This document shows positions 813 through 42,400 of a DNA stretch of 44,045 nt, piece by piece; the first letter of the stretch is position 1; the number at the start of each line of letters is the position of its first letter. The notes under the pieces are model-generated. The model saw only the letters and a program-made list of their open reading frames with translations, was not told the origin of the DNA and searched no databases. The DNA comes from an uncultured virus (IMG/VR IMGVR_UViG_3300012012_002042) (lineage: Duplodnaviria; Heunggongvirae; Uroviricota; Caudoviricetes): the IMG/VR virus record IMGVR_UViG_3300012012_002042; one strand, 5' to 3'. Both the position numbers and the translations under genes were made by a program.

Positions 813-1466
813 ATGAACAAAGACGACGAAAGGGTGCTCTGCGTACCCACGGCAGATGTGGTGGAGATTATCGGAGAAAGGACGGGACTGATCGATCATC
901 CCGAGTTGCAAGAGAAGCTGGCTGATTTGGTGGTCCAGTCCTGTGCAACGAAGAAATTCGTGCGGCGCGGTGATTGTGAGAGGGATGAGAGCCTGCTGCA
1001 AATCATTCCATACGTGATTTACTGGCTGCGCGATTCCGGTGAGTTCCTGTCGTTCACGCGCGGATCCAAAATCCACGAGAACCGCCTGGCCAACAAGGTC
1101 AGCATCGGCATCGGCGGACACATGAACGAAGAGGATGGCGGGAATTATTTCGAGGCTCTGAAACGTGAACAGCGGGAGGAAGTTTCAGTTCCGCAGGAAC
1201 TCCTCGATACACAGTATCGCGTGAGCGGCTATCTGAGGCTCACCAATACTCCCGTGGATCGTGTCCATTTCGGCGTGGTGCATCTGGTGACAGTGCCGAG
1301 GGAAGCGCGTGAGAAGTTCCTGGTGCCTCCGTATGAGTCGGAAAATCTCACAGATTTGCAGTGGAGGACTGCGGAACAATTGCGCGCACTTTATTTGGTT
1401 GGGCGCCTTGAACCGTGGTCGGTGCAGTCGTTGAAAATGTTTCTCAGCATCGGACACGAGCAATGA
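813..1466 (+). CDS. NUDIX-family phosphoesterase (predicted)
   Basis: Motifs RGDCERDESLLQIIPY, R..KIHENRL..KVSIGIGGH, ALKREQREE, VDRVHFGVV and LEPWS match the predicted NUDIX phosphoesterase family. Confidence 0.8.
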   Translation: MNKDDERVLCVPTADVVEIIGERTGLIDHPELQEKLADLVVQSCATKKFVRRGDCERDESLLQIIPYVIYWLRDSGEFLSFTRGSKIHENRLANKVSIGIGGHMNEEDGGNYFEALKREQREEVSVPQELLDTQYRVSGYLRLTNTPVDRVHFGVVHLVTVPREAREKFLVPPYESENLTDLQWRTAEQLRALYLVGRLEPWSVQSLKMFLSIGHEQ

Positions 1467-3514
1467 TCGTGGAAAAAATGGGCGTGTCCTCAATGCGCGC
1501 CTTCATCGACAAGTGTGATCAGCAGTATTACAACGGCAGCTCGGATGTCCACGACAGTCTCTATGACCAGGTCAAGGCGCAGCTGAAAGCCTCCTGCCCG
1601 GATGACCCTCGCCTGACCCGCGTCGGCCCGCCGGTGATGGACTCCACACACGGTAAGATTCGACACTCGCATCCGATGGGATCGCTGGAGAACGTGCACA
1701 CGCCGGCGGAGTTCGACAAGTGGTGGGACAGCGTTCTGGCTTCCTACCCACACGCACGTGCGAATTGCAGTCAGAAGGCAGACGGCAGCAGCGTGTCCGT
1801 CAAATATGTGGACGGAGAATTGAAGCAGGGTCTGACGCGGGGCAATCACGAGATCGGAGACGACGTCACATCGAACATCGCCATGATCCCGAATGTGCCT
1901 CTGGTTGCCCATTTGGATGAGCGACCCTTCACCGGGTTCGTCCGTGGGGAAGTCGTGCTCACGACTGCGGCGTGGCTGAAGTTGGATCCGGATCAGACTT
2001 CGAATGCGCGCAATATGGGTAACGGAATGTTGATGAGGCATTCTGGTGAAGGCTGCGATCAGCTCTTCTTTGCTGCGTTCCGTATTTTCGACGCGGACGG
2101 AAATCCGATTGGAAAAACGGAGACCGAATCGCTTGCCCTGCTCAAGCGCATGGGATTCGCCACGGTGAGCGCTTTCGGGCCGATAGCGGAAGTTTCGGAC
2201 AGCGCGGCAGTGCTGGCTCAATACGAACTCTACGCGAACCCCGAATACAAATTCCGGGACAAGCTTCCATATGAGATCGACGGACTGGTGATCAAAGTGG
2301 ACCAGTATGACATCCAGGAGAAAATGGGGGAAGTGGGCAATTGTCCGAAGTCTCAGCGCGCATTCAAATTCCCACCCCGCGGCGCGCCTGGCGTTCTGTC
2401 GGATGTGAAGATGCAACTCGGACGATGCGGCGCCCTGACTCCCGTGGCCGTGTTCGACATCCCTGTGAAAGTGGGAGGTGTGTCGGTGTCCACCGCGACG
2501 CTGCACAACTTCAGCATCATCGCCGAGTTGGACATTGCCATTGGAGACACAGTGATGGTGAGTCGAATGGGAGACGTCATTCCAGGCGTGAGCGCGAAGG
2601 TGTCCAACGGCAAGGATCGCAAACTGATCATCAAGCCGAAGAAGTGTCCGTTCACTGGCGGTCAGGTCGGGCATTTGGAGAATGCGGACGGCACGAAGAG
2701 CAAGGTGTTGTTCTCGCTGAGCTCTGGTGATTGTCCAGCGGTGAAGATTGCACATCTGCGCAAATGGGTGGAGACGCTTGAGATCAAGGGGCTGGGGCCG
2801 GTGTATTTGGAGGCACTGTTTGAGACGATGGTGGATCCAGGACCGAAGTATGGTGTCATAGGCGGCGCGCCCGGTGTAATATCGCCAGCGGACCGCGCCG
2901 GAAGAATGCAACGACTGGTGGAGACGCCGGCCGATCTGTATCGGCTAAAGGTGGATTCGGAGTGCGACGCTATCAGCCCGAAGATCATGGAAAAGGTGGT
3001 TGCGAATATTCAGGCATCGAAAGAAATCGAATTGTCGAAATTCCTGGCGGCCCTCGGCGTGAATTCGCTGGGTCACGATCGCTCGATCAAAATCCGGCAG
3101 ACATTGCCTGGAGAGTTTGACCGGCTCGAGGATTGGTTCAGCGGGAAGTTGGAGAAGTATGCGAAGGAAGCGAAATTAACCGGCTTGATCCGAAAGATCG
3201 GACCCAGCCTCAAAGAACTCAAACCAGTCATGGCAGATCTGCTCAAAGCGGGCGTAAAAGTGAAAGAAGGAAAAGCGAAGGGTGCCGTTGTCGGTAATTG
3301 CTTCTGTCTCACCGGGGAATTCCAGCAGACGAAGGATTCCTACCACAGGGAGATTGAGGATGCGGGCATGTCATGGGCACCTCGGTTCACCAAACACGTG
3401 ACGCATGTGGTGTCGATGAATCCGCACTCGAATACGAAGAAGTGTCAGGAAGCTCGCAATCAGGGGTTGCCAATCATCGGGCTGGATGAACTGCAGAAGC
3501 TGCTCGGGAAATGA
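1463..3514 (+). CDS. ligA: NAD-dependent DNA ligase
   Basis: YYNG..D..YD domain Ia; HPMGSL; KADG adenylation motif; LTRGN; VRGEV; EIDGLVIK; AFKF; ATLHN; GDVIP; HhH (IKGLGP, ALGVNSLG); C-terminal BRCT (CLTG...K...A...G.PII). ATG overlaps the upstream TGA. Confidence 0.95.
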   Translation: MIVEKMGVSSMRAFIDKCDQQYYNGSSDVHDSLYDQVKAQLKASCPDDPRLTRVGPPVMDSTHGKIRHSHPMGSLENVHTPAEFDKWWDSVLASYPHARANCSQKADGSSVSVKYVDGELKQGLTRGNHEIGDDVTSNIAMIPNVPLVAHLDERPFTGFVRGEVVLTTAAWLKLDPDQTSNARNMGNGMLMRHSGEGCDQLFFAAFRIFDADGNPIGKTETESLALLKRMGFATVSAFGPIAEVSDSAAVLAQYELYANPEYKFRDKLPYEIDGLVIKVDQYDIQEKMGEVGNCPKSQRAFKFPPRGAPGVLSDVKMQLGRCGALTPVAVFDIPVKVGGVSVSTATLHNFSIIAELDIAIGDTVMVSRMGDVIPGVSAKVSNGKDRKLIIKPKKCPFTGGQVGHLENADGTKSKVLFSLSSGDCPAVKIAHLRKWVETLEIKGLGPVYLEALFETMVDPGPKYGVIGGAPGVISPADRAGRMQRLVETPADLYRLKVDSECDAISPKIMEKVVANIQASKEIELSKFLAALGVNSLGHDRSIKIRQTLPGEFDRLEDWFSGKLEKYAKEAKLTGLIRKIGPSLKELKPVMADLLKAGVKVKEGKAKGAVVGNCFCLTGEFQQTKDSYHREIEDAGMSWAPRFTKHVTHVVSMNPHSNTKKCQEARNQGLPIIGLDELQKLLGK

Positions 3515-10253: not shown

Positions 10254-12188
10254 ATGGGGAAAACCATCACAGCATTGAGGCAGGGGAAAATCGATGAAGT
10301 CGACGATGACGAGGTCGATTATGATCTGCTCACGACGGATCAGCTTTACGCTACGAACATCAACCATATTCCGATGCCGAACGCGGTGCAGGCTCCGCGC
10401 TCATTTTACGGAGCACGCTTCATCAGTCAGGCCTGGCCGCTGAAACATCGGGAAGCGCCGCTCGTTCAGAATCTGAGGACTGGTACGAATGAGTCCTACG
10501 ACGATATTTACGGAGAATTCGCCGGCGCGGTGCGGGCACGGGAAAATGGGGAAATCATCGAAGCCTCGCCAGATCGGATTATTTTCAAAGGCGAGTCCGG
10601 CAAAGAACACGTGCACGACCTTTACAAGGACTTCATGTTCAACCGTAAATCGAGCGTCACTCAGAAGCCTGTGGTGGAAGCCGGCATGAAGGTAAAAAGA
10701 GGAGACCGCCTTGCTGCATCGAATTACACCGATGACAAAGGGACTCTGGCCATGGGGACGAATGCGCGCGTGGCGCTGATCCCTTACAAGGGGTGGACCA
10801 TGGACGATGCCACAGCCATCTCGGACAGTTTCGCCAAGCGGTTGACTTCGGAAATGACGCACTCCCACAAGCAGGAGTTCGATGATGACGTCAAAGGTGG
10901 TGTGAATCATTTCATCTCCCTGTTCCCGACCGTGTTCAAGAAGGAGCAGATCACCAATTTGGATGAGCACGGAGTGGCCAAAGTCGGCACGATATTGAAC
11001 ACTGGAGATCCGATGGTGTTGGCCACGGCTCCTCGGGTGATGACTGCCCGTGATGCGAATGTCGGTAAGTTGTCGAGGACGTTGCAGCAGACGCGAAAGA
11101 ATGCATCTACCACGTGGGATTTCGAAGACCCGGGTGTGGTGACCGATGTGGCTCACACGAGGAAGGGCAGCAAAATCGTGGTGAAGTCGTATTCGCCGGC
11201 GAAGGTCGGGGATAAGATCGTGCTGCGCACTGGTCAGAAACAGATCATTTCCAAGATTCTACCGGACGATCAGATGCTACGCGGCGTGGACGGAAAGCCC
11301 GTGGATCTTCTGCTCAACCAGCTCGGGTTGCCGAGCCGGGTCAATGCATCCCTGCCGTATGAATTGGCGCTGGGGAAAATCGCCAGGAAGATGGGGCAGC
11401 CGTTCAAATTGAATGCCTTCAACGAGGAAGGCACCTCTCGCCAACGTCAAGTGGAAGACCTGCTCAAACAGCATGGCGTGAGTTTTGAGGAGGAAGTTTT
11501 CGATCCAGTTTCCAACACGAAAATCGATCGGCCAATTTCGGTGGGCGACGGCTACGTGATGAAGCTGGTGCACTCAGGGGAGTTGAAGAAGTCCTCCCGC
11601 GGCGTCGGATCCTACGACAGCGACATGCAACCTCTGCGTGGCGGCAGTGCTGGCGGACAATCGAAACGCGTATCAGGCCTTGAACAATCCGCTTATCTCG
11701 CGGCCGGCGCATATGCCACCCAGCGTGAAAATGCCACTCTGCGCGGCACCAGGAGCGATGAATATTGGCGGCAAGTTCGTGCAGGGGAAACTCCGGCGGA
11801 ACCAGGGGAGCCATTTGTGTGGAAGAAGTTTCAGGCGCTGCTTTGCGGGTCGGGAATGTTCGCCAAGAAGCTGGGCAAGGGGCGGCTCCGTCTCGGACCG
11901 ATGACCGACAAAATTCTGGCACAGCAAAATCCGGTCGAATTGAAAAATGGCGAGCTGGTGGATTTGAACAATTTTGAACCCATCAGCGGGGGATTATTCG
12001 ATCCGGCACTCGTCGGAGGTTCAAAGTGGGGTCGCATATCGCTCCCCAAATCGCTACCCAACCCGGCGTTCGAAAATAGCATCAGGACACTCCTATCGAT
12101 CACGAAGAAAGAATTTGATGGAATAATTTCTGGCAAAGTGCACATTGGCCCTGATGGTAAAGTCATCAAAGTCCGCGAAGAGAGATAA
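10254..12188 (+). CDS. Phage multisubunit RNA polymerase piece: beta C-terminal half fused to the beta-prime N-terminus
   Basis: Beta motifs QAWPL..EAPLV, LAMGTNARVA..PYKGWTMDDA..IS, GDKIVLRTGQK, LLNQLGLPSRVN, YVMKLVH and GGQSKRVSGLE..A..A.GA, followed by beta-prime-like GPMTD, GEL, EPISGGLFDP, WGRISLP. Confidence 0.9.
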   Translation: MGKTITALRQGKIDEVDDDEVDYDLLTTDQLYATNINHIPMPNAVQAPRSFYGARFISQAWPLKHREAPLVQNLRTGTNESYDDIYGEFAGAVRARENGEIIEASPDRIIFKGESGKEHVHDLYKDFMFNRKSSVTQKPVVEAGMKVKRGDRLAASNYTDDKGTLAMGTNARVALIPYKGWTMDDATAISDSFAKRLTSEMTHSHKQEFDDDVKGGVNHFISLFPTVFKKEQITNLDEHGVAKVGTILNTGDPMVLATAPRVMTARDANVGKLSRTLQQTRKNASTTWDFEDPGVVTDVAHTRKGSKIVVKSYSPAKVGDKIVLRTGQKQIISKILPDDQMLRGVDGKPVDLLLNQLGLPSRVNASLPYELALGKIARKMGQPFKLNAFNEEGTSRQRQVEDLLKQHGVSFEEEVFDPVSNTKIDRPISVGDGYVMKLVHSGELKKSSRGVGSYDSDMQPLRGGSAGGQSKRVSGLEQSAYLAAGAYATQRENATLRGTRSDEYWRQVRAGETPAEPGEPFVWKKFQALLCGSGMFAKKLGKGRLRLGPMTDKILAQQNPVELKNGELVDLNNFEPISGGLFDPALVGGSKWGRISLPKSLPNPAFENSIRTLLSITKKEFDGIISGKVHIGPDGKVIKVREER

Positions 12189-15327: not shown

Positions 15328-16434
15328 ATGAAAGCAACCGTATCGAAAAATCTGATGGTCAGCGCGCTGGGAACATTGAACAAGGCATTCGCCAAACAGC
15401 GAAGTTCTCTGCCGGTTCTGAACCACGTGAATATTCAAGTGGGAGCGGAGGGGTTTACCCTGACCCGCACAGACTTGGACATGATGGTGATTGTGAAATG
15501 TCCAGCGACCGTGCAGGACGACTGGCGTGGTGATTTCTGTGTCCCGGCTCAGAAGATGGAACAGGTCATCGCCAGCATGCCAGGTGACACAGTGGAAATG
15601 GAAATGGAGCGTCTTACAGTCAGGTTCCGCAGCGAGAAATATTATGTCGAGATGTGTATCCTGCCTGGTGATGAATTCCCGGTGACTTCTGCGTCCGTTA
15701 TGGATGGGATTCACTTTCAGGTTGCGGCGGATGTTCTGCACCAGAGCCTTTCCCGTGTGAGTCCCGCTGTGGGAGATAGCGCGATATCCCACAACGGCGT
15801 GTGGTTTTCATTCCGTAATTCCAAACTGAATCTGTATGCCATGGATGCACGCCGCTGCCATGCGGAGAATAACGTGTTGTCGTCAATTGACGCTGCAAAT
15901 AATGACACGCTGATCCGAGAGGATCGTGTGAAAGCGTTTCAGATCGCCCTCGCCCTCGCGTCTGGAGATGTCGAGTTGATCGTTTCCGATACTTTCATCG
16001 TGTTGTGCACAGCGGATGTGACCGTGGCTTCTCGGGGTATGCGATTAGGGATGCCAGGGTTTGACAGAATCTTGGCGAAAGGTCATGTCACAGATTCTCT
16101 GCATGTGGATCCGACCGTCCTGGCCGAGGCCCTGAAGCGGGTCATGCTGATCGCCCCGGTGGACAAGCCTAGGGTGAAATTGGCTGTCGTGCGTGGAAGT
16201 AACTACTTATCCCTGACGTGTGAGAACGCCAATGTGGGTGACGCCCTCGAACGCGTGCCGATTAAGGAGTGGCAGGGGAATGATTTGCACATTACCCTCA
16301 ATGCACGATACTTGCTGGATGCTGTGCGGGTGGTTGACAAATTGCAAATGGTGAAGATCGATCTCAGCGGCCAGGAACCCGTTCATATTTCCGCAGATGA
16401 TTACCACGCTGTGATTGCCAGCATTCGCCAATGA
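15328..16434 (+). CDS. dnaN: DNA polymerase III beta sliding clamp homolog
   Basis: 368 aa; MKATVSK..., LPVLNHVNI, LTRTDLD, FCVPA, DEFP, AMDARR, LNARYLLDA, VIASIR C-terminus, all matching the DnaN pattern. Confidence 0.9.
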   Translation: MKATVSKNLMVSALGTLNKAFAKQRSSLPVLNHVNIQVGAEGFTLTRTDLDMMVIVKCPATVQDDWRGDFCVPAQKMEQVIASMPGDTVEMEMERLTVRFRSEKYYVEMCILPGDEFPVTSASVMDGIHFQVAADVLHQSLSRVSPAVGDSAISHNGVWFSFRNSKLNLYAMDARRCHAENNVLSSIDAANNDTLIREDRVKAFQIALALASGDVELIVSDTFIVLCTADVTVASRGMRLGMPGFDRILAKGHVTDSLHVDPTVLAEALKRVMLIAPVDKPRVKLAVVRGSNYLSLTCENANVGDALERVPIKEWQGNDLHITLNARYLLDAVRVVDKLQMVKIDLSGQEPVHISADDYHAVIASIRQ

Positions 16435-34038: not shown

Positions 34039-35987
34039 TTGGCTGAAACGCAGAGTCACGATCGACATGAGCGGGGTCACTGAACATGACCTGGAGACTG
34101 CATTCGAGGAGGCAGTGAAGCTTTTGAAAGAAGGCTACCTCTCAGGCCTGAATGGAAACGACACGGGCAATTTCACATTCAAAACCGAGACTCCCGATGA
34201 GTAAGAAAATTCGGTTTAGCACTCTGGTTCGGGATTACGGACCCGTGCAGCATGCGTTGGCCATGAGGCCGAAGGCTTGGAGGAAGGCGTGGGACGAGGG
34301 CAGGACTGCCACCGTGTATCACGCCGACGATGGTGACTGGTGTGCCCCGGTGATTGCCCTTGTGCGCAGAGCTGGATTTGTGAATACGATCTGCAAAATC
34401 GCCTGGGCGAAACCGTTACCGGATGACGTGACGGAAATCATTGGCATGCGGGATAATCCGGAAGCCTGGGATCTGTGTCACCAGTCGCACCGATGAAACC
34501 GTTCTACGTTCATATCACGGATCCTTCTTTCCGTGAGGATTCCGGATATTTCTATCAAGTCCGTGGATGGCCTACAGCGGCGCGTCAGCGTGGACACTTC
34601 ATTGATGATTGGGAGGCGGCGATGGCTGCGTGCAAGAAGCATCACCCTGACGGCTGGAACGTCACAGACGTAATTAAGTTAATGTGCCGATGGAAATGGC
34701 TGATGAAAGCCTGTGATTTCGTAGTCATCCATTACTGACACATGGTCGCACTATTCTGGACGTTCGTTATGCTGGGAGGTTTGTTTATTTTAACCGCAAC
34801 ATTCTGCAAATTATGACACGCGCAATATCCGATACCGAGAGGTGCCTGTGGTACAAGATGGCCTTGGTGAATTTGAAGCAGGCTGTCCTGCAGGTCGGCG
34901 CCGGCCATGGTGTGAAGCCGGAAGATGTCATCAAGGATTACGGCGGTTACGACCTTGACGCATGGATTCCGCAATTCAAGGACGACGCGCCCGAGTTCGA
35001 CGAGTTCCTTTGGAATATGGCCAGGGAGCATGAGGTTCCGAATGAGCAAAACGAGGTGTCGTGTGCCATGCTGCAATATTGGCACCATTACGAGGCGGCT
35101 GTTCGCGGATGGCCTGCCACGTTGACTGGGTCTGCGGCGAACATCAAGACGGCGTGGGGCGATTTGGCCTTGGCCATTGCCTACTCTCAGGAATGAACGC
35201 AGAGCAGCGTCAGGCCGCCGCGTTGGCTGAGTATTTGGTCTACCTGCGATCCCTGCCAAGTATTGTGACCGCGGAATTGTCCCATGTGGATGAGGAGGGC
35301 GTCGCCCATATTCTCGTGACGCAGTATCGGGAATTCAAGTTTGGAGAAATCACACTGACAGTCGAAAAATGAAATCGAAACCACCCCATCCGGTATTTGC
35401 TGAGGGAGATGAAGTGACCTGGACATCTCAATCACAAGGCTTCGAAAAGAGGAAGCATGGTAAAATCGTGCGTGTCGTAGCCAGCGGGATTGGTCCCTCT
35501 GTCCCGCAAGGAATGCGCGTGCAGGGAGCAGGCCTGGGTGGTGCGAGAAATCATCAGAGCTACCTGGTGGGCATCGGCAATATACTCTACTGGCCCCGCG
35601 TAACGCTTCTGCGGCCGTATCTCGGATCCAAAAAGCCTGCTGAGTGATGCGTCACGTGGTTTGGCTGAAATATAATTCGGCACAGGCCCAGGTTCACCAG
35701 GAGCCTACGGGCGTGTGGCAGACAAACGGAGATGGCCCGATGGGGCTGAAAACTGCGCAAAGAATTGCGAGGGAGATTCGCGAGCACTGGCCCGGGATAC
35801 AGACGAAAGTTTTACCAGAAAACCAAACACCAGAATGAAAGAAATCATTGGCGAATATGTCAAGCAGCAGTGGACCGGGAGAAAGCAGGATCATGCCGAG
35901 GAGATCCTGGATAACGGCTTGTCGATGGTAATTCCAGGGGACACACTCGTGAGGAAATTATTGATTGTGCTGCGATGTAGTTCGTGA
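34025..35987 (+). other. Run of small hypothetical ORFs: 34025-34204, 34197-34496, 34493-34738, 34813-35196, 35193-35372, 35369-35647, 35644-35838, 35835-35987
   Basis: Overlapping start/stop codons on the + strand. Confidence 0.5.
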
Positions 35988-36000
35988 GAATGCTCGCAAC

Positions 36001-36576
36001 ATGAGTAACGAGCAATTGGATTCAGACACGAAGGGTGGAGGGGAAGTGTATTTCTTCCATAATGGGGATTACGCGAAGATTGGTTATTCCACGCAGGAGC
36101 TGCGGAAAAGACTTTGGCAGGCTCATGTGTGGTCACCACACGAACTGACCATTGTCGGATGGATATGGCACGAATTCCCCGATGTGCTCGAAAAGACGGT
36201 GCATCTCCATTTGGCTCACGCCTGGATGCGTAAAGTGACAACAGGGAATGGGGAGTGGTTTAATATCACGGTAGAAGAGTGTAAAAAAACAATTAGCAAT
36301 TATAAAAATGGCAAAATCATCTGTATCAGCGGCTGGGGTTCGGCACATAGCACGGCTTACCGGCATCCGGCCCATCTTGTTCGACCGCTACGGGGGAACG
36401 AACACGACAAAATTGGACGACATGCAGAAAATGTATCTGAACGAAAACCTGGAATGTTGCATCCCAGTATTGAATGTGTTCAGTCTATTAAGCGCGATAA
36501 ACACGCCGTCGGTGGCGAAGCGTTTCTACGGGAAACAAGGCGCAAACCTCGGGATGATGGTTCAGGCGTTCGTTAA
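36001..36576 (+). CDS. T5orf172/MUG113 (GIY-YIG-like) domain protein; the part after ~36305 overlaps the next gene in another frame
   Basis: GEVYFF....YAKIGYS....KRL......SP..L.IV......LEKTVHLHL.......GEWF is the T5orf172 pattern. Confidence 0.8.
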   Translation: MSNEQLDSDTKGGGEVYFFHNGDYAKIGYSTQELRKRLWQAHVWSPHELTIVGWIWHEFPDVLEKTVHLHLAHAWMRKVTTGNGEWFNITVEECKKTISNYKNGKIICISGWGSAHSTAYRHPAHLVRPLRGNEHDKIGRHAENVSERKPGMLHPSIECVQSIKRDKHAVGGEAFLRETRRKPRDDGSGVR

Positions 36577-36889
36577 CATTGAAGCGTACAAAACGGAGGA
36601 TTCCATGCTCGCGACGATCTGTGACGATAAAGGGAAAATCTACACGCAATCCGACCCGCGCATCACAGTGATTGGACACGTAGCGCGGTTGAAGGGTGGG
36701 ATTCCAAATCCGAAATCCCGTCCGATGATTCCGACTGGATGGAGCGTGACGTTCGTGTTCGAGATTCAGGAGAATCCCACAGTAAATTCTGAGACACTGA
36801 TCAAGATGGTGGAACAGGGCGGGATCATCGGCCTTGGAACATTCCGCCCGATCTTCGGCCGCTATCGGGTAGAGTGGCTGAGCGCGTAG
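36308..36889 (+). CDS. Stand-alone RAMP/Cas7-like RNA-binding protein (putative Vipr-type effector)
   Basis: 193 aa. N-terminal strand RLTGIRPILF, CIP..NV.S.L helix start, RPMI..GWSVTFVFEI and a C-terminal Gly-rich loop GGIIGLGTFRPIFGRYRV, as in RAMP proteins. Directly precedes the GGC-NN array. Confidence 0.8.
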   Translation: MAKSSVSAAGVRHIARLTGIRPILFDRYGGTNTTKLDDMQKMYLNENLECCIPVLNVFSLLSAINTPSVAKRFYGKQGANLGMMVQAFVNIEAYKTEDSMLATICDDKGKIYTQSDPRITVIGHVARLKGGIPNPKSRPMIPTGWSVTFVFEIQENPTVNSETLIKMVEQGGIIGLGTFRPIFGRYRVEWLSA

Positions 36890-36899
36890 AGATTTAGAC

Positions 36900-37242
36900 G
36901 GCTAGGCGCGGCCGGGCTCGGCAGGGCTGGGCTCGGCAGGGCTGGGCGCGGCAGGGCAAGGCAAGGCAAACACGAGCACCTCGGGCGGATTTGAACAGAG
37001 GTTACAATTTTCTTGGCAGGGCAGGGCGAGGCACGGCTCGGCGAGGCATGGCTCGGCAAGGCAAGGCAAGGCAAGGCAAGGCAACCACGAGCACCTCGGG
37101 CGGATTTGAACAGAGGTTACAATTTTGTTGGCGGGGCAAGGCAGGGCATGGCTCGGCGCGGCTAGGCATGGCTCGGCAAGGCGGGGCAAGGCAACCACGA
37201 GAATCCCGGGCGGATTTGAACAGGGATATTATTTTCTTGGCA
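36900..37242 (+). ncRNA. Array of putative guide RNAs: (GGC-NN)13-14 tracts separated by a conserved 44-45 nt hairpin linker; at least 3 complete units, truncated by a gap
   Basis: Tracts at 36900-36969, 37015-37084 and 37130-37194; linkers at 36970-37014, 37085-37129 and 37195-37238; a 4th tract starts GGCA at 37239. The linker stem covaries. Confidence 0.85.
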
Positions 37243-37948
37243 NNNNNNNNNNNNNNNNNNNNNNNNNNNNNNNNNNNNNNNNNNNNNNNNNNNNNNNNNN
37301 NNNNNNNNNNNNNNNNNNNNNNNNNNNNNNNNNNNNNNNNNNNNNNNNNNNNNNNNNNNNNNNNNNNNNNNNNNNNNNNNNNNNNNNNNNNNNNNNNNNN
37401 NNNNNNNNNNNNNNNNNNNNNNNNNNNNNNNNNNNNNNNNNNNNNNNNNNNNNNNNNNNNNNNNNNNNNNNNNNNNNNNNNNNNNNNNNNNNNNNNNNNN
37501 NNNNNNNNNNNNNNNNNNNNNNNNNNNNNNNNNNNNNNNNNNNNNNNNNNNNNNNNNNNNNNNNNNNNNNNNNNNNNNNNNNNNNNNNNNNNNNNNNNNN
37601 NNNNNNNNNNNNNNNNNNNNNNNNNNNNNNNNNNNNNNNNNNNNNNNNNNNNNNNNNNNNNNNNNNNNNNNNNNNNNNNNNNNNNNNNNNNNNNNNNNNN
37701 NNNNNNNNNNNNNNNNNNNNNNNNNNNNNNNNNNNNNNNNNNNNNNNNNNNNNNNNNNNNNNNNNNNNNNNNNNNNNNNNNNNNNNNNNNNNNNNNNNNN
37801 NNNNNNNNNNNNNNNNNNNNNNNNNNNNNNNNNNNNNNNNNNNNNNNNNNNNNNNNNNNNNNNNNNNNNNNNNNNNNNNNNNNNNNNNNNNNNNNNNNNN
37901 NNNNNNNNNNNNNNNNNNNNNNNNNNNNNNNNNNNNNNNNNNNNNNNN

Positions 37949-38746
37949 ACAAAAATCGCAAAGACGCAGCAAACTGCAACATTGGAATGGATCGGGCCCG
38001 CCGTGGCCATGAAGTATATGGAGAAGAATAAGAACCCGAGGGCGGTCCGTCAGAGTCACGTCGACAAATACGTGCGGATCATCCAGGCCGGCGAATTTCG
38101 CACTGCCCAGAGCATCGGATTCGACCTGAATGGGTATCTTCGGGACGGGCAACACCGCTTGCTGGCCATCATCGCGACTGACACACCTGTTCAGATGTGG
38201 GTGATTCGAAATATGAGTGAGGATGAGGTTCTGGCCATTGATCAAGGCGAAAAACGGAACAATTCCGTCATTCTGAGTGTGGATACTCGTGCAGGCGCAG
38301 TCATCACCTTGGCTTCTACCATAATGGCTGGCTCCAGCCGTGCGCCGCTCACAAGTGAGTTGATGTGCGTGCGTGACGCCATTTTGGATCCGTGTATGGA
38401 TTTGCTGCACGGTTGCACGGCGGCGCCGAAGCATATCTCGTCACGTTTCGTGCGCTTGGCGGCCGTCCTGAATATGGTGAAATCAACGAAGCATTACGCT
38501 TATGTGAAAACGCAATATCCTGCGCTGGTTCGCAGCGACTTCGATGTGCAATCGAAGCCTATTCAGTATTTGTACAAACGGCTCACGATGTCCGTCAGGA
38601 GTATTACGAAAAACTTCCAGTTCATGACGGCATATCTTGCATTCGATCCAACAAAGTCCGAGCATAAGACCATCGTCATCAAGGACCCGACCAAGCTGTC
38701 CTCGGATATTCAAACGGAGCTTCTGGATCTAGCCACACGCGCGTAA
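37949..38746 (+). CDS. ParB-like / DGQHR-motif domain protein (5' end lies in the gap)
   Basis: N.NPRAVRQSHVDKY...I..GEF...SIGFD.NG.LRDGQHRLLAII....ID.G..R. The frame is open back to the gap edge at 37949. Confidence 0.8.
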   Translation, partial: TKIAKTQQTATLEWIGPAVAMKYMEKNKNPRAVRQSHVDKYVRIIQAGEFRTAQSIGFDLNGYLRDGQHRLLAIIATDTPVQMWVIRNMSEDEVLAIDQGEKRNNSVILSVDTRAGAVITLASTIMAGSSRAPLTSELMCVRDAILDPCMDLLHGCTAAPKHISSRFVRLAAVLNMVKSTKHYAYVKTQYPALVRSDFDVQSKPIQYLYKRLTMSVRSITKNFQFMTAYLAFDPTKSEHKTIVIKDPTKLSSDIQTELLDLATRA

Positions 38747-38749
38747 AAA

Positions 38750-39070
38750 ATGACAAGAATTAAGAAATCCCTGGAGGATCTGTATCAGGGAATATTCGAT
38801 GCACGCGTCGAGAAATATCGCAAACGCTTCGGCTACGCGCCGGAGTGCGACTCGCACAAGGCTGAGGTCTGCGCCGGCATTCAGGAACTGATCGACAAAA
38901 AGCTCATCGTGGAAATCGTGGGACGCAGACTGGCCCGCCGAATTGCTTACAAGGCGTTTGGCGAACGCGGCATGAGCGGGGCACTCGCGATGCATTACCT
39001 GGCACAGGCTGAGCCGGAGCTGACCTGGGGGCAGCGGCAGATCCTCGGTAATAAATTCAGGCGTCGATGA
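38750..39070 (+). CDS. Hypothetical protein
   Basis: 106 aa ORF directly after the ParB-like gene. Confidence 0.55.
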   Translation: MTRIKKSLEDLYQGIFDARVEKYRKRFGYAPECDSHKAEVCAGIQELIDKKLIVEIVGRRLARRIAYKAFGERGMSGALAMHYLAQAEPELTWGQRQILGNKFRRR

Positions 39071-39193
39071 AGAAGTGCGGCTGGTGCGGCATCGAGACTC
39101 CGTTCTCGGAATTGCACGACATCACGACATGTGGGGATTGGTGGACGATTTGCACATGCTGTAAATCGAAGGTCAAAACGGATGCGGAGATCA

Positions 39194-39460
39194 ATGCCGA
39201 ACGCGCAAAGGAGACCTGTGGCCGAGACCTCTGATCCTGTAAAACTGCGTTATCGGAATTGGAAGGGTGAAACGCGTATTCGGGAGGTCCGGATATGCTA
39301 CACCGCATTCGCGGGTACGGAATATCACCCCGAACCCCAATGGATCGTGGTAGTTTACGACACGGAGAAAAAAGATCTGCGCTACTTCGCCCTGAAGGAC
39401 TGCGACTTCCTGACACCGACTATGGATACCGAAGAGAAAATTCAAACTGAACCAAAATGA
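39194..39460 (+). CDS. Small stand-alone WYL-like (SH3/Sm-fold) domain protein
   Basis: VKLRYRNWKGETRIREV.....F..TEYHPEPQW....YDTEK...RYFALKD matches small phage WYL-like proteins. Start is uncertain. Confidence 0.65.
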   Translation: MPNAQRRPVAETSDPVKLRYRNWKGETRIREVRICYTAFAGTEYHPEPQWIVVVYDTEKKDLRYFALKDCDFLTPTMDTEEKIQTEPK

Positions 39461-42400
39461 AATCTGCCACCACAAAAATTACGGAAATATTGAAGAAGGA
39501 ATTGCCCAGCCTGACACCGACGCGGGCAAAGGAAGTTGCGAAGCTCATCACCGGTCCGACGGGATTGAATCTCAAGGAAATTATCGAGGTTCTGCAGTGC
39601 CTGCACACTGATGCGCAGATGGCAGTGCGGGACGACTGGGATCGGACTGACGACGGCTTCGAATGCCAGATGCGGCTTATTGATGACGCGCTGCCGTATC
39701 TGGGCGCTGAGTCCAAGTTGTATCGAAGGGGGTAATGAAAGAATACGCCGCAGTATATCAGCAGAGGGAGGACGGGGACTGGGATGTGATGGTGGTATTT
39801 GCCACGGACCGAATGATATTCGTGGAACTGCTCAGCCAAGCTTCCGGAGCCCGCAATATGGCCGAAGAGCTGACATTATTCCTGAAGGACAATGGAGAGG
39901 AGGCCAAGATCATCGAGTTCGATTCCTTGAGCGAAATTCCCGATGTCTGGGTGGACGAAAAGCCAGAATGAAACGAAAATCCAAAATCGCATGAGACTGA
40001 TAATCCAGAAAAAGGACGAGACGACATTCGTGTCCGAGTTCGAGTCGGTCACCGTTATTTGGGATGTCGATGTCCCGGGCGAAGAGGACAAGCCGGCGCA
40101 ATTGCAATTGAAGGCCACTCCGGAAGGTGTGGTCCTGGATGTGTGGATGACCGAGCGATCGGATTTCGACACCAACGTCGGGACCAGTTCGGAGACGGCC
40201 CAGGAAATCACAGAACGACTTTGTAAATGACCCTACACCCACCGTTCATGATCACGGCCCGTCTCATGCCAGGCCTCAAAGTGGGGGATTCGTATCTCTC
40301 GCTTGAAAAGGTCGACAAGGGGGAGGTCGAGAATTGTTTTGGAGCCCGGTTTCGTCCGTTCTTCATTTTGGATTTCCCGAAAGGAAAGGAGTTCAAATTC
40401 CATGACATGCAGACTGGCTGCTGCCAAAAATACTCGATGGAATCCCTGTTCACGGATTTTCTGGGATACCTCGACGACGCGGCAGAGGATTACAGCAGCG
40501 CCTGTCACAGCTGGCCTGCTATCCCGAAGGACGCCACCGCGCGCGTGTTCCCTCACCGGGTGGTGAAGTGGGCGTTCCAATTCCGCTATGAGATTATGGA
40601 TTTGGTTGAAACGATTCGAAGAAAGGCCGGTAAATTGATCGAACCTTAATATGAAAATATTACAATTCCTGTGGGATTACAGATGGGTGGTCTTCTGGTT
40701 GGTGATTGGTGTGTGGCTCGTGCCATTTCTGCAGGAACGCAAACCATGTCCCAGGAGGACTGCCAGGGGACTGCTGGAAATACCAGCAGATCTCCGGAAA
40801 CGGCGCATGCGGGAATTGCGCCAGAAGGACTTCAAGTTCTGGGTGGCTGTCAGCGCTGAATTGGAAGACCTCAGAGAAAGCCGATGATGACCTACACGCC
40901 TGACAAGTGGCAGCAGTTCCAGATATTCGAGTCCATGCATGCCCCGCTGTTCGAACGCTACCATCTGGGATCTAAAGGCAAACTGGGCCGCTATCGCACG
41001 GTTGGAAATTCGCAGGGCAAATATGGACGCGAGGACTCTGACACCGGCGCCGAATATAAAGCCTTGGGGCACGAGGAAGTCCGGAAAGGTAAACGCGGAG
41101 TTTATTGCTCAACGGATTACCAGTGCGGGGCGTTTTACCCAGCCACCGCGTTCATCACGGGGCGCGACGATGATGGCGAATCGCTGACCTTTGAAGAATT
41201 GGAGAAATTCAGGGACGCCTTCTACGCAGCCCGCACCGGCCGTGTGATCCTGCCTCGCGGCTGGGATCACAAAAAGGGCGGTTGGACGTGGGAGAACGTG
41301 CTCATGTATTATCCTGACATGAAGCCCTACGAGCCGGCGCGCATCTTGAAGAGCCGGTTCCCCGATGCGGAAGTGGAGACAGCCAGACTGGGCAATCTCG
41401 TCACCATTTATTTCGATCCGAAGAAATGACTGAGATCACCGAGGAGCAGCGCTCGCAATTCCTGGACGCCATCGGAGAGGCTCTGGGTATCGAGTTTACC
41501 GTCACTGAGGCCGAGGACGGCAGGTTGAAATCGCTCTTTGCAAATGCGCAGCCGAAGAACAACCGTAAATTGTTGGAGATCTACGCAACGCCGGAAGGCC
41601 GTCGCTACGTGGATGCATTTGCGAAGACGTATTCGGCAGGAGCGCCAATGGTTTATCTGTTAATGGGATTGCCAACACCAAATTGAAAATCAAATGCCAG
41701 AATTCAAAGTGCCAGTCACTTGGGAAATGTGCGGATGGGTCAAGGTCGAAGCAGCGGACATGAAAGAAGCCCTGGAGAAATTCGATCCCCAGGTAATGTC
41801 ACTGCCGCCTGAATCGGAGCAGGATTACGTGGACAGTTCATATCGCCTCACGACAACGGACCCGGAAGAGGCACTGGTCATGCAACCGCCGCGGCCGTGA
41901 TCTTCCACCCAGCTCCCGATAATCCGGACGAGCAGTGGTTCCACCGGCTGAAGTCCGAGAATGGACTCATCTCCATGGCCATTTACCCCGTCATGTTCGG
42001 TTACCGTATCAGGGCCTGGCGCACCGGTTCGCCTTGTTGTGATTTGGATTGGTGTGGTGGTGATGACTGGAAGCAGGTGGAGTGGCTTTATGCGGCTTGC
42101 AGGGCGATCTTGGAGTCACAGGTGGAGGCGGAGGATTTCTTCCGTGGTATCCCTTCCAGTTCGCGCATCAAGCCTTGCTGGATGGATGCACGGTTCATGC
42201 AGGAGATTGGGAGAATAATCATTCGAGGGAAGCTCTCGTTTGAGCCAGTGGAATTGGAGAAACCAAAAACGCAATTAATGGGCGAACTGCTCACAACACA
42301 GCATGGCTAAAAAATTCGAATTCAAGGAGCGCTGGGTAAAAGAGATGAACAACGGGCCCTACAATATTCTGTTCTCTTTTCGGAACAAGGAAGTGTTCGT

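Follow-up and report, generated by a model that had tools for sequence, protein, structure and literature searches.

A covarying hairpin as the structured 3' tail of vrRNAs in a probable phage VIPR array

What kind of element is the short hairpin that recurs between GGC-rich tracts in the DNA of an uncultured phage, and does selection act on its structure? The stretch analyzed here, called the window throughout, comprises the full 44,045 nucleotides of IMG/VR virus record IMGVR_UViG_3300012012_002042. An earlier note, prepared from the letters of this DNA alone, had pointed to compensatory base-pair changes around an invariant loop and proposed that the linker between tracts is a functional RNA element, such as a handle or an end cap, rather than a slippage microsatellite. 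This proposal is borne out both by covariation in homologous tails and by the VIPR context of the locus. The flagged region very probably is part of a phage array of vrRNAs (VIPR guide RNAs) on the + strand, with its first GGC located 10 nt 3' of the vipr stop codon, and the hairpin of the linker is the structured 3' tail of the vrRNAs of this system.

VIPR is a CRISPR-like system that was first described in 2026 (bioRxiv 10.64898/2026.04.26.720920). According to the text of that report, the Vipr protein is a minimal RAMP that has an RRM core, a glycine-rich loop and a thumb, is encoded next to the RNA genes, and binds vrRNAs composed of 9-16 GGY-NN repeats. Neighboring Vipr protomers are described as gripping each GGY, while the exposed NN pairs with DNA and one base is skipped per unit. 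The vrRNA transcripts are ~100 nt long, some of them lie in arrays adjoining vipr, and their 3' tail is an invariable segment of ~40 nt with a conserved secondary structure, which in the SUSP1 clade is a pseudoknot. The tail is presented as a structured cap and is likened by the VIPR authors to the crRNA repeat handle (10.64898/2026.04.26.720920). For SUSP1 itself, the pseudoknot is reported to cap the vrRNA 3' end, with the adjoining subunits 8-12 resolved in all assembly classes, and the G-loop to hold the GGY bases (10.64898/2026.04.26.720927). Further reports state that a "solo" vrRNA becomes competent to form a complex with Vipr through a common consensus tail (10.64898/2026.10.15.759431) and that 99 VIPR-like clusters have a 5-nt periodicity (10.64898/2026.10.21.760802).

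Layout of the array and its hairpins

Each unit of the array is 110-115 nt long and consists of 13-14 GGC-NN pentamers followed by a 3' tail of ~45 nt (Table 1). All 41 pentamers in the window open with GGC, and their NN dinucleotides vary. Tandem Repeats Finder describes the array as 2.6 copies of a 115-nt period with 84% matches. The traits reported for VIPR loci are found together here: a Vipr protein is encoded beside the RNA genes, the tracts hold 14, 14 and 13 pentamers with a conserved GGY, and the invariable structured tail of ~45 nt belongs to a set of 64 tails in which the helix covaries. Just three linkers are visible in the window because the array runs into a gap of 706 N that hides the remainder and the 3' boundary. 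Two more runs of N lie inside genes, and the N runs in the window look like scaffold gaps.

Table 1. Positions of the array and its neighboring genes in the window. R1 is the covariance model of the tails.
Feature	Positions	Strand	Details
T5orf172/MUG113-domain (GIY-YIG-like) ORF	36001..36576	+	PF10544 E 3.5e-8, PF13455 E 1.1e-8
vipr, Cas7-like RAMP protein, 193 aa	36308..36889	+	PDB match, profile, AF2/Foldseek
vrRNA-1 guide tract	36900..36969	+	14 GGC-NN pentamers
vrRNA-1 3' tail (linker 1)	36970..37014	+	ACACGAG, hairpin, A/U-rich end; R1 53.5 bits
Linker 1 hairpin	stem 36978-36982 / 36998-37002; loop 36983-36997	+	stem ACCTC/GAGGT
vrRNA-2 guide tract	37015..37084	+	14 GGC-NN pentamers; final six GGCAA
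vrRNA-2 3' tail (linker 2)	37085..37129	+	R1 53.6 bits
Linker 2 hairpin	stem 37093-37097 / 37113-37117; loop 37098-37112	+	stem ACCTC/GAGGT
vrRNA-3 guide tract	37130..37194	+	13 GGC-NN pentamers
vrRNA-3 3' tail (linker 3)	37195..37238	+	R1 54.7 bits
Linker 3 hairpin	stem 37203-37207 / 37223-37227; loop 37208-37222	+	stem ATCCC/GGGAT
Fourth guide, then gap	37239..37948	+	first letters GGCA, then 706 N (37243-37948)
ParB-like N-terminal gene	37949-38746		phrog_5931 E 4e-30, phrog_1033 E 9e-5; weak DndC-like PADLOC rows

The three hairpins were read as the earlier note had described them. Linkers 1 and 2 share one stem and linker 3 has another, the two differing at stem positions 2 and 4 together with the partners of these positions (C-G to U-A and U-A to C-G). 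The identical 15-nt loop GGGCGGATTTGAACA occurs exactly three times, starting at 36983, 37098 and 37208, and all three copies carry CACGAG 5' of the stem and a T-rich run 3' of it. When up to two mismatches are allowed, GGGCGGATTTGAACA has 4 matches in the window, compared to 0.11 expected from 100 shuffles. The window alone is nonetheless insufficient to prove selection, because the folding energies of single linker copies are not better than those of shuffles (z of -0.71 to +0.66 for the six linker strands). Two of the three + strand copies have the hairpin in their minimum-energy fold. Three copies, two of which have the same stem, are thin evidence when taken alone, and it is the 64 distinct homologous tails that prove the pairing to be more than chance.

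Rfam over 35500-39500 gave nothing but a chance lncRNA row (E 8.9), blastn of 35000-37242 against a phage collection found no match, and an exact scan of IMG/VR for GGGCGGATTTGAACA identified 72 loci, none in a homologous context.

Some additional features of the array are visible in the window and in related contigs. The last 2-6 pentamers ahead of each tail read GGCAA (36955-36969, 37055-37084 and 37185-37194). The final GGCAA is nearly invariant across relatives, and thus the last part of the guide may be a component of the handle rather than of the target code. Contigs from two lake water metagenome runs of one study (X2 and X3) carry vipr with 11 differences over 36300-36896, and they join 36896 to 37130, such that 233 nt are skipped and 14 other letters stand between. 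Such a junction might reflect either another strain, in which the guide array is shorter or otherwise different, or repeats collapsed during assembly. In run X1, one contig continues past the third tail, from 37239 on, with sequence that is not part of the array. No contig from four DNA runs of one study covers 37004-37099.

Selection on the helix of the tail

An alignment of Vipr relatives led to 81 related loci, comprising 80 metagenome loci and one IMG/VR locus. These contain 187 GGYNN tracts, distributed over 75 of the 81 loci, all on the strand of vipr and none on the opposite strand. Tails were collected with a pattern anchored on ACGAG, GGRCGG and ACAG only, and therefore pairing of the stem was not required for selection. 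The tails resembling those of the window, called family A, amount to 78 copies, 64 of them distinct, from 37 sources that include the window; some of these source loci are the same or near-identical contigs. The 64 distinct tails were aligned (alignment A2). They have a common order in which ACGAG and a 5-nt arm precede GGGCGG, 1-5 variable bases separate this from AACA, and the complementary arm leads into an A/T-rich end.

Selection acts on the helix of the tail. Standard pairs fill 99.1% of the 318 cells of the 5-bp stem, a cell count that overstates the number of independent events because many of the 64 tails share a common ancestry. The closing C-G pair is invariant, and each of the other four pairs shows 4-6 standard pair types, with both partners changed. 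None of 500 shuffles reaches the observed percentage of paired cells, the number of cells changed on both sides or the covariation score. The count of pair types is not separated from shuffles, being reached by 98 of 500, and the count of four pairs changed on both sides is matched by all 500. When the partner arm is slid by 1-3 columns, pairing falls to 14-49%. Furthermore, RNAalifold proposes the identical helix unprompted, and the top four column pairs by mutual information are the four variable stem pairs. The claim of the earlier note that selection acts on RNA structure is upheld by the covariation of the four variable stem pairs across 64 tails.

There are 20 versions of the stem against a constant loop frame, GGGCGG..AACA, and the 5' ACGAG is likewise invariant. 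The loop is 15 nt long in the window and 11-13 nt in relatives. Within single arrays of relatives, units carry differing stems, as they do in the window. The stem cells include nine G-U pairs and no A-C pairs, which indicates that the RNA is read from the + strand.

No sign emerged in these tails of an H-type pseudoknot like that of the SUSP1 clade, in which bases of the hairpin loop pair with the 3' flank. The longest helix between the loop and the 3' flank averages 4.36 nt compared to 4.5 nt in shuffles, the corresponding mean for the 5' flank and the loop is 2.89 nt compared to 3.25 nt, and a mutual-information scan of A2 revealed no covarying column pairs outside the stem. Invariant loop bases cannot display covariation, and so tertiary contacts may still be made by them.

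A covariance model (R1) derived from A2 was applied to 200 sources, with L037-L072 and the training loci L208-L263 excluded. This model scores the three window tails at 53.5-54.7 bits. It matches one non-training tail, located 3' of the vipr homologue in locus L291 (42.3 bits), and three of 135 listed generic GGCNN loci (L143 and L144, which are on one contig, and L180). A weak row was obtained for L122 (17.3 bits, E 0.0086), and neither the SUSP1 locus (L290) nor any of 36 chance-match loci gave a match. L291 is a binned contig of 1175 nt from a metagenome-assembled genome titled uncultured Rhodoferax sp., and it carries a vipr of 55% identity together with its family-A tail. It was the one match in a scan of genome contigs for this Vipr clade, and it gives a weak hint of a betaproteobacterial freshwater host.

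Family A is not the only kind of tail in this Vipr clade. Among the 81 related loci, family A is found in 33, family B in 14 and family C in 7, and the window array carries family A alone. Family B tails have the form ACACAC-TGCAYC..loop..GRTGCA-GCAGTTTGC, and family C tails are terminator-like, with GGGCGGCAC..GTGCCGCCC followed by a T-run. Both occupy the same place as family A, after terminal repeats of the GGCAA type, and likewise have a hairpin core, but they differ from it in sequence and in loop size.

Arrays of this general type also occur more widely in IMG/VR, where a scan for ten consecutive GGCNN units returned at least 135 loci. Among the first 30 loci listed, the tracts look intergenic, GGCNN is on the strand of the following gene, and the product of the preceding gene often ends in G.FRP.FGR[FY], as does the product of the ORF at 36308-36889.

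The Vipr protein and neighboring genes

The ORF that precedes the array encodes Vipr, as judged by homology to the SUSP1 protein and by a predicted fold like those of Csm3 and Cas7. No Pfam family was found for this ORF. A phmmer search with its sequence alone matches PDB entry 36pp_D, "SUSP1 Vipr protein" (E 5.2e-4), and a profile of 50 relatives (A1) matches the same entry (E 7.7e-5). Comparison with the SUSP1 gene product by hhalign yields a probability of 95% over the C-terminal 53 columns. The G-loop of the window protein, GLGTFRPIFGRY, aligns with GVGDWRPRFGRF of SUSP1, with the Arg and an aromatic residue retained and Asp replaced by Thr; the motif G-L-G-T-F-R-P-I-F-G-R is invariant or nearly so in the 50 relatives. 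An AF2 model of the protein (pLDDT 86.4) has Csm3 and type VII Cas7 as its top Foldseek matches, with E values from 5.8e-7 and 117 matches at E <= 0.001. A large protein collection holds 218 homologues at E <= 1e-5. PADLOC had no match for Vipr or for the T5orf172 ORF that precedes it. The true start of vipr may lie a few codons further in.

The 3' ~270 nt of the T5orf172 ORF overlap the start of vipr in another frame, and the scores of this ORF for PF10544 and PF13455 exceed the curated cut-offs. Of the 81 related loci, 52 have a homologue of this ORF immediately 5' of vipr. For 50 of these 52 the computed overlap is 104-290 nt (median 227), with a constant frame offset, and for the other two the value is negative. 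Residues ~14-105 are modeled confidently by AF2, while the overlapping C-terminal part has a pLDDT below 50 and is predicted to be disordered. The model gave no Foldseek match at E <= 0.001; weak rows include GIY-YIG proteins (1zg2 and Slx1) at E 0.8-5. By eye, the motifs HPAH.VRPLRRGQQ and GGEAFLRQ of the T5orf172 product appear to be an alternative-frame reading of the conserved Vipr N-terminus. According to the VIPR report, vipr is accompanied by an accessory vap gene whose function involves interaction with DNA (10.64898/2026.04.26.720920), and the T5orf172 ORF is a candidate for such a vap-like gene. The terms GIY and T5orf172 are absent from the main text of that report, as distinct from the figures and supplements that define vap1-6.

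Beyond the array is a gene with a ParB-like N-terminal match that starts in the gap or at its edge. None of the 81 related loci, all of which have vipr, contains a homologue of this gene, and so it probably is outside the VIPR system. Elsewhere, the window encodes an NAD-dependent DNA ligase (1415-3514), an RNA polymerase beta-like protein (10254-12188) and a sliding-clamp homologue (15328-16434), and its long ORFs are nearly all in + orientation, consistent with a large phage genome.

Proposed roles of the tail and rival readings

How the tail might function can be approached through comparison with known systems. The type II VIPR locus of SUSP1, which in the phiSUSP1 record is on the minus strand at ~27.4-29.6 kb, is like the window in its GGY-NN tracts, its structured 3' extension, its head-to-tail units beside vipr and its homologous protein. 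The two differ in that the SUSP1 tracts are made of GGT units and those of the window of GGC units, and in that the SUSP1 tail is a pseudoknot whereas the window tail is a 5-bp hairpin with a GGGCGG..AACA loop. In addition, vap1 follows vipr in SUSP1, whereas in the window the T5orf172 ORF precedes vipr and overlaps it. By analogy with SUSP1, whose tails share no sequence with those of the window, the tail would be a 3' cap or handle. The Cas6-type handle of class 1 crRNAs offers a similar arrangement, since there also a programmable guide, bound by a RAMP filament, ends in a short covarying helix. However, a class 1 CRISPR guide is a spacer, whereas the guide in the window is a noncontiguous GGY/NN code; the window also has no cas genes, CRISPR array or Cas6, and its repeat unit is a whole vrRNA.

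On the SUSP1 analogy, the tail might mark the end and the register of the Vipr filament and make the RNA competent for loading. The 5-bp helix would then act as a scaffold, displaying the invariant GGGCGG..AACA loop and ACGAG flank to the protein. The array may be co-transcribed with vipr: its first GGC closely follows the stop codon, and a promoter scan of 35900-37242 found no promoter-like site. The array transcript could be cut into single vrRNAs in the A/U-rich stretch between each hairpin and the next GGC tract, and the hairpin might protect the new 3' end after cutting.

The targets of the guides were also sought. The VIPR report adopts a match of at least 80% of NN as its target criterion and describes guides without a match in their own genome (10.64898/2026.04.26.720920). 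The best NN match of the guides within the window is 64%, in agreement with that description of the reported systems. A mismatch-tolerant scan of the window and the collected loci reached at best 73% of NN (19 of 26), under the 80% criterion, and exact patterns with a 1-nt skip, built from the first 11 units of vrRNA-1 and of vrRNA-3, had no matches in IMG/VR.

Other explanations for the hairpin must be weighed against its role as a vrRNA tail recognized by protein. Each hairpin with its T-run might be mainly an intrinsic terminator or attenuator that ends each small RNA. Most homologous tails, and all three copies in the window, indeed have a T-rich run 3' of the stem, and in the same Vipr clade there are single vrRNAs downstream of vipr that end in a strong G+C-rich hairpin and a T-run (family C). 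For family A, though, this explanation is unlikely. An intrinsic terminator would have a G+C-rich stem of at least 5 pairs, a loop of 3-8 nt and a T-run immediately 3' of the stem, whereas here the stem is just 5 bp long and the loop has 11-15 nt. A terminator scan of 35900-37242 found none on the + strand; its one terminator-like site is within vipr on the minus strand. A terminator would also not be expected to keep loop and flank bases invariant. Moreover, the units are consecutive with no promoter-like site between them, which is better accommodated by processing of one transcript than by termination.

Partition sites of plasmids and phages are typically built from tandem repeats that contain inverted repeats, and the gene after the gap has a ParB-like N-terminal match (phrog_5931). 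The inverted repeat could thus be a DNA-level site for a dimeric DNA-binding protein, for example a centromere-like repeat for the ParB-like protein. We regard this as extremely improbable, given that a protein reading the sequence would not tolerate 20 arm sequences in which only complementarity is kept. The nine T-G pairs and the lack of any A-C pair form an RNA-type asymmetry that also speaks against a DNA site, as does the absence of homologues of the ParB-like gene from the 81 related loci, all of which have vipr. An equally far-fetched possibility is that the linker mimics a tRNA or T-loop and is processed by tRNA enzymes or serves as an integration site. Its appeal comes from the minus-strand loop GTTCAAATCC, which resembles a tRNA T-loop, and from other GGCNN arrays (L085, L089 and L283) that carry T-arm-like hairpins between tracts (GGTTCGACTCC/GGTTCGACCCC). 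Against it, ARAGORN called no tRNA or tmRNA in the window and Rfam gave no relevant match. Homologous tails do not have the ATTTG part of the loop, most of their loops being GGGCGG, 1-2 nt and AACA, which makes the T-loop likeness peculiar to the window. The G-U asymmetry favors the + strand and hence disfavors a minus-strand T-loop.

With the hairpin taken as a vrRNA tail, the reasoning of the earlier note from compensatory changes to a functional RNA, made on sequence only, proved right, and the element can be placed in a system published in 2026. The tail does not constitute a new class of element, being a distinct hairpin family within the known VIPR kind. For VIPR biology it represents a second, well-supported type of vrRNA tail, in which a 5-bp hairpin covaries around a fixed GGGCGG..AACA loop; it comes from a clade of uncultured lake-water phages. 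The alignment and the covariance model can be used for annotation, and the conserved overlap of T5orf172 and vipr may define an accessory gene of the clade.

A more speculative suggestion, which we rate as doubtful, is that the Vipr clade of these freshwater phages represents an undescribed VIPR subtype. Such a subtype would have a pseudoknot-free hairpin tail, whose GGC-like GGGCGG perhaps docks the terminal protomer, and a T5orf172 (GIY-YIG-like) nuclease-type ORF that overlaps vipr by ~230 nt. Among VIPR types I-VII, nucleases are tied in the text of the VIPR report to the host-borne types III and V (10.64898/2026.04.26.720920). If the suggestion is true, the subtype would be a phage-borne, nuclease-armed VIPR, as opposed to these host-borne types.

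Other arrays bear on the diversity of tails and of Vipr relatives. Neither ARAGORN nor Rfam made a tRNA call at the T-arm-like tails of L085, L089 and L283, although the form of GGTTCGACTCC/GGTTCGACCCC suggests tRNA-like processing signals in these other viral and metagenome GGCNN arrays. A Vipr homologue is also found in a cultured phage, Burkholderia phage vB_E436 (PQ789831.1, locus L289), where it is annotated as hypothetical (36% identity, E 2e-29). Directly upstream of this homologue, at 2390-2470, there are ~14 relaxed GGNNN units (GGCAA GGATA GGCGC ...).
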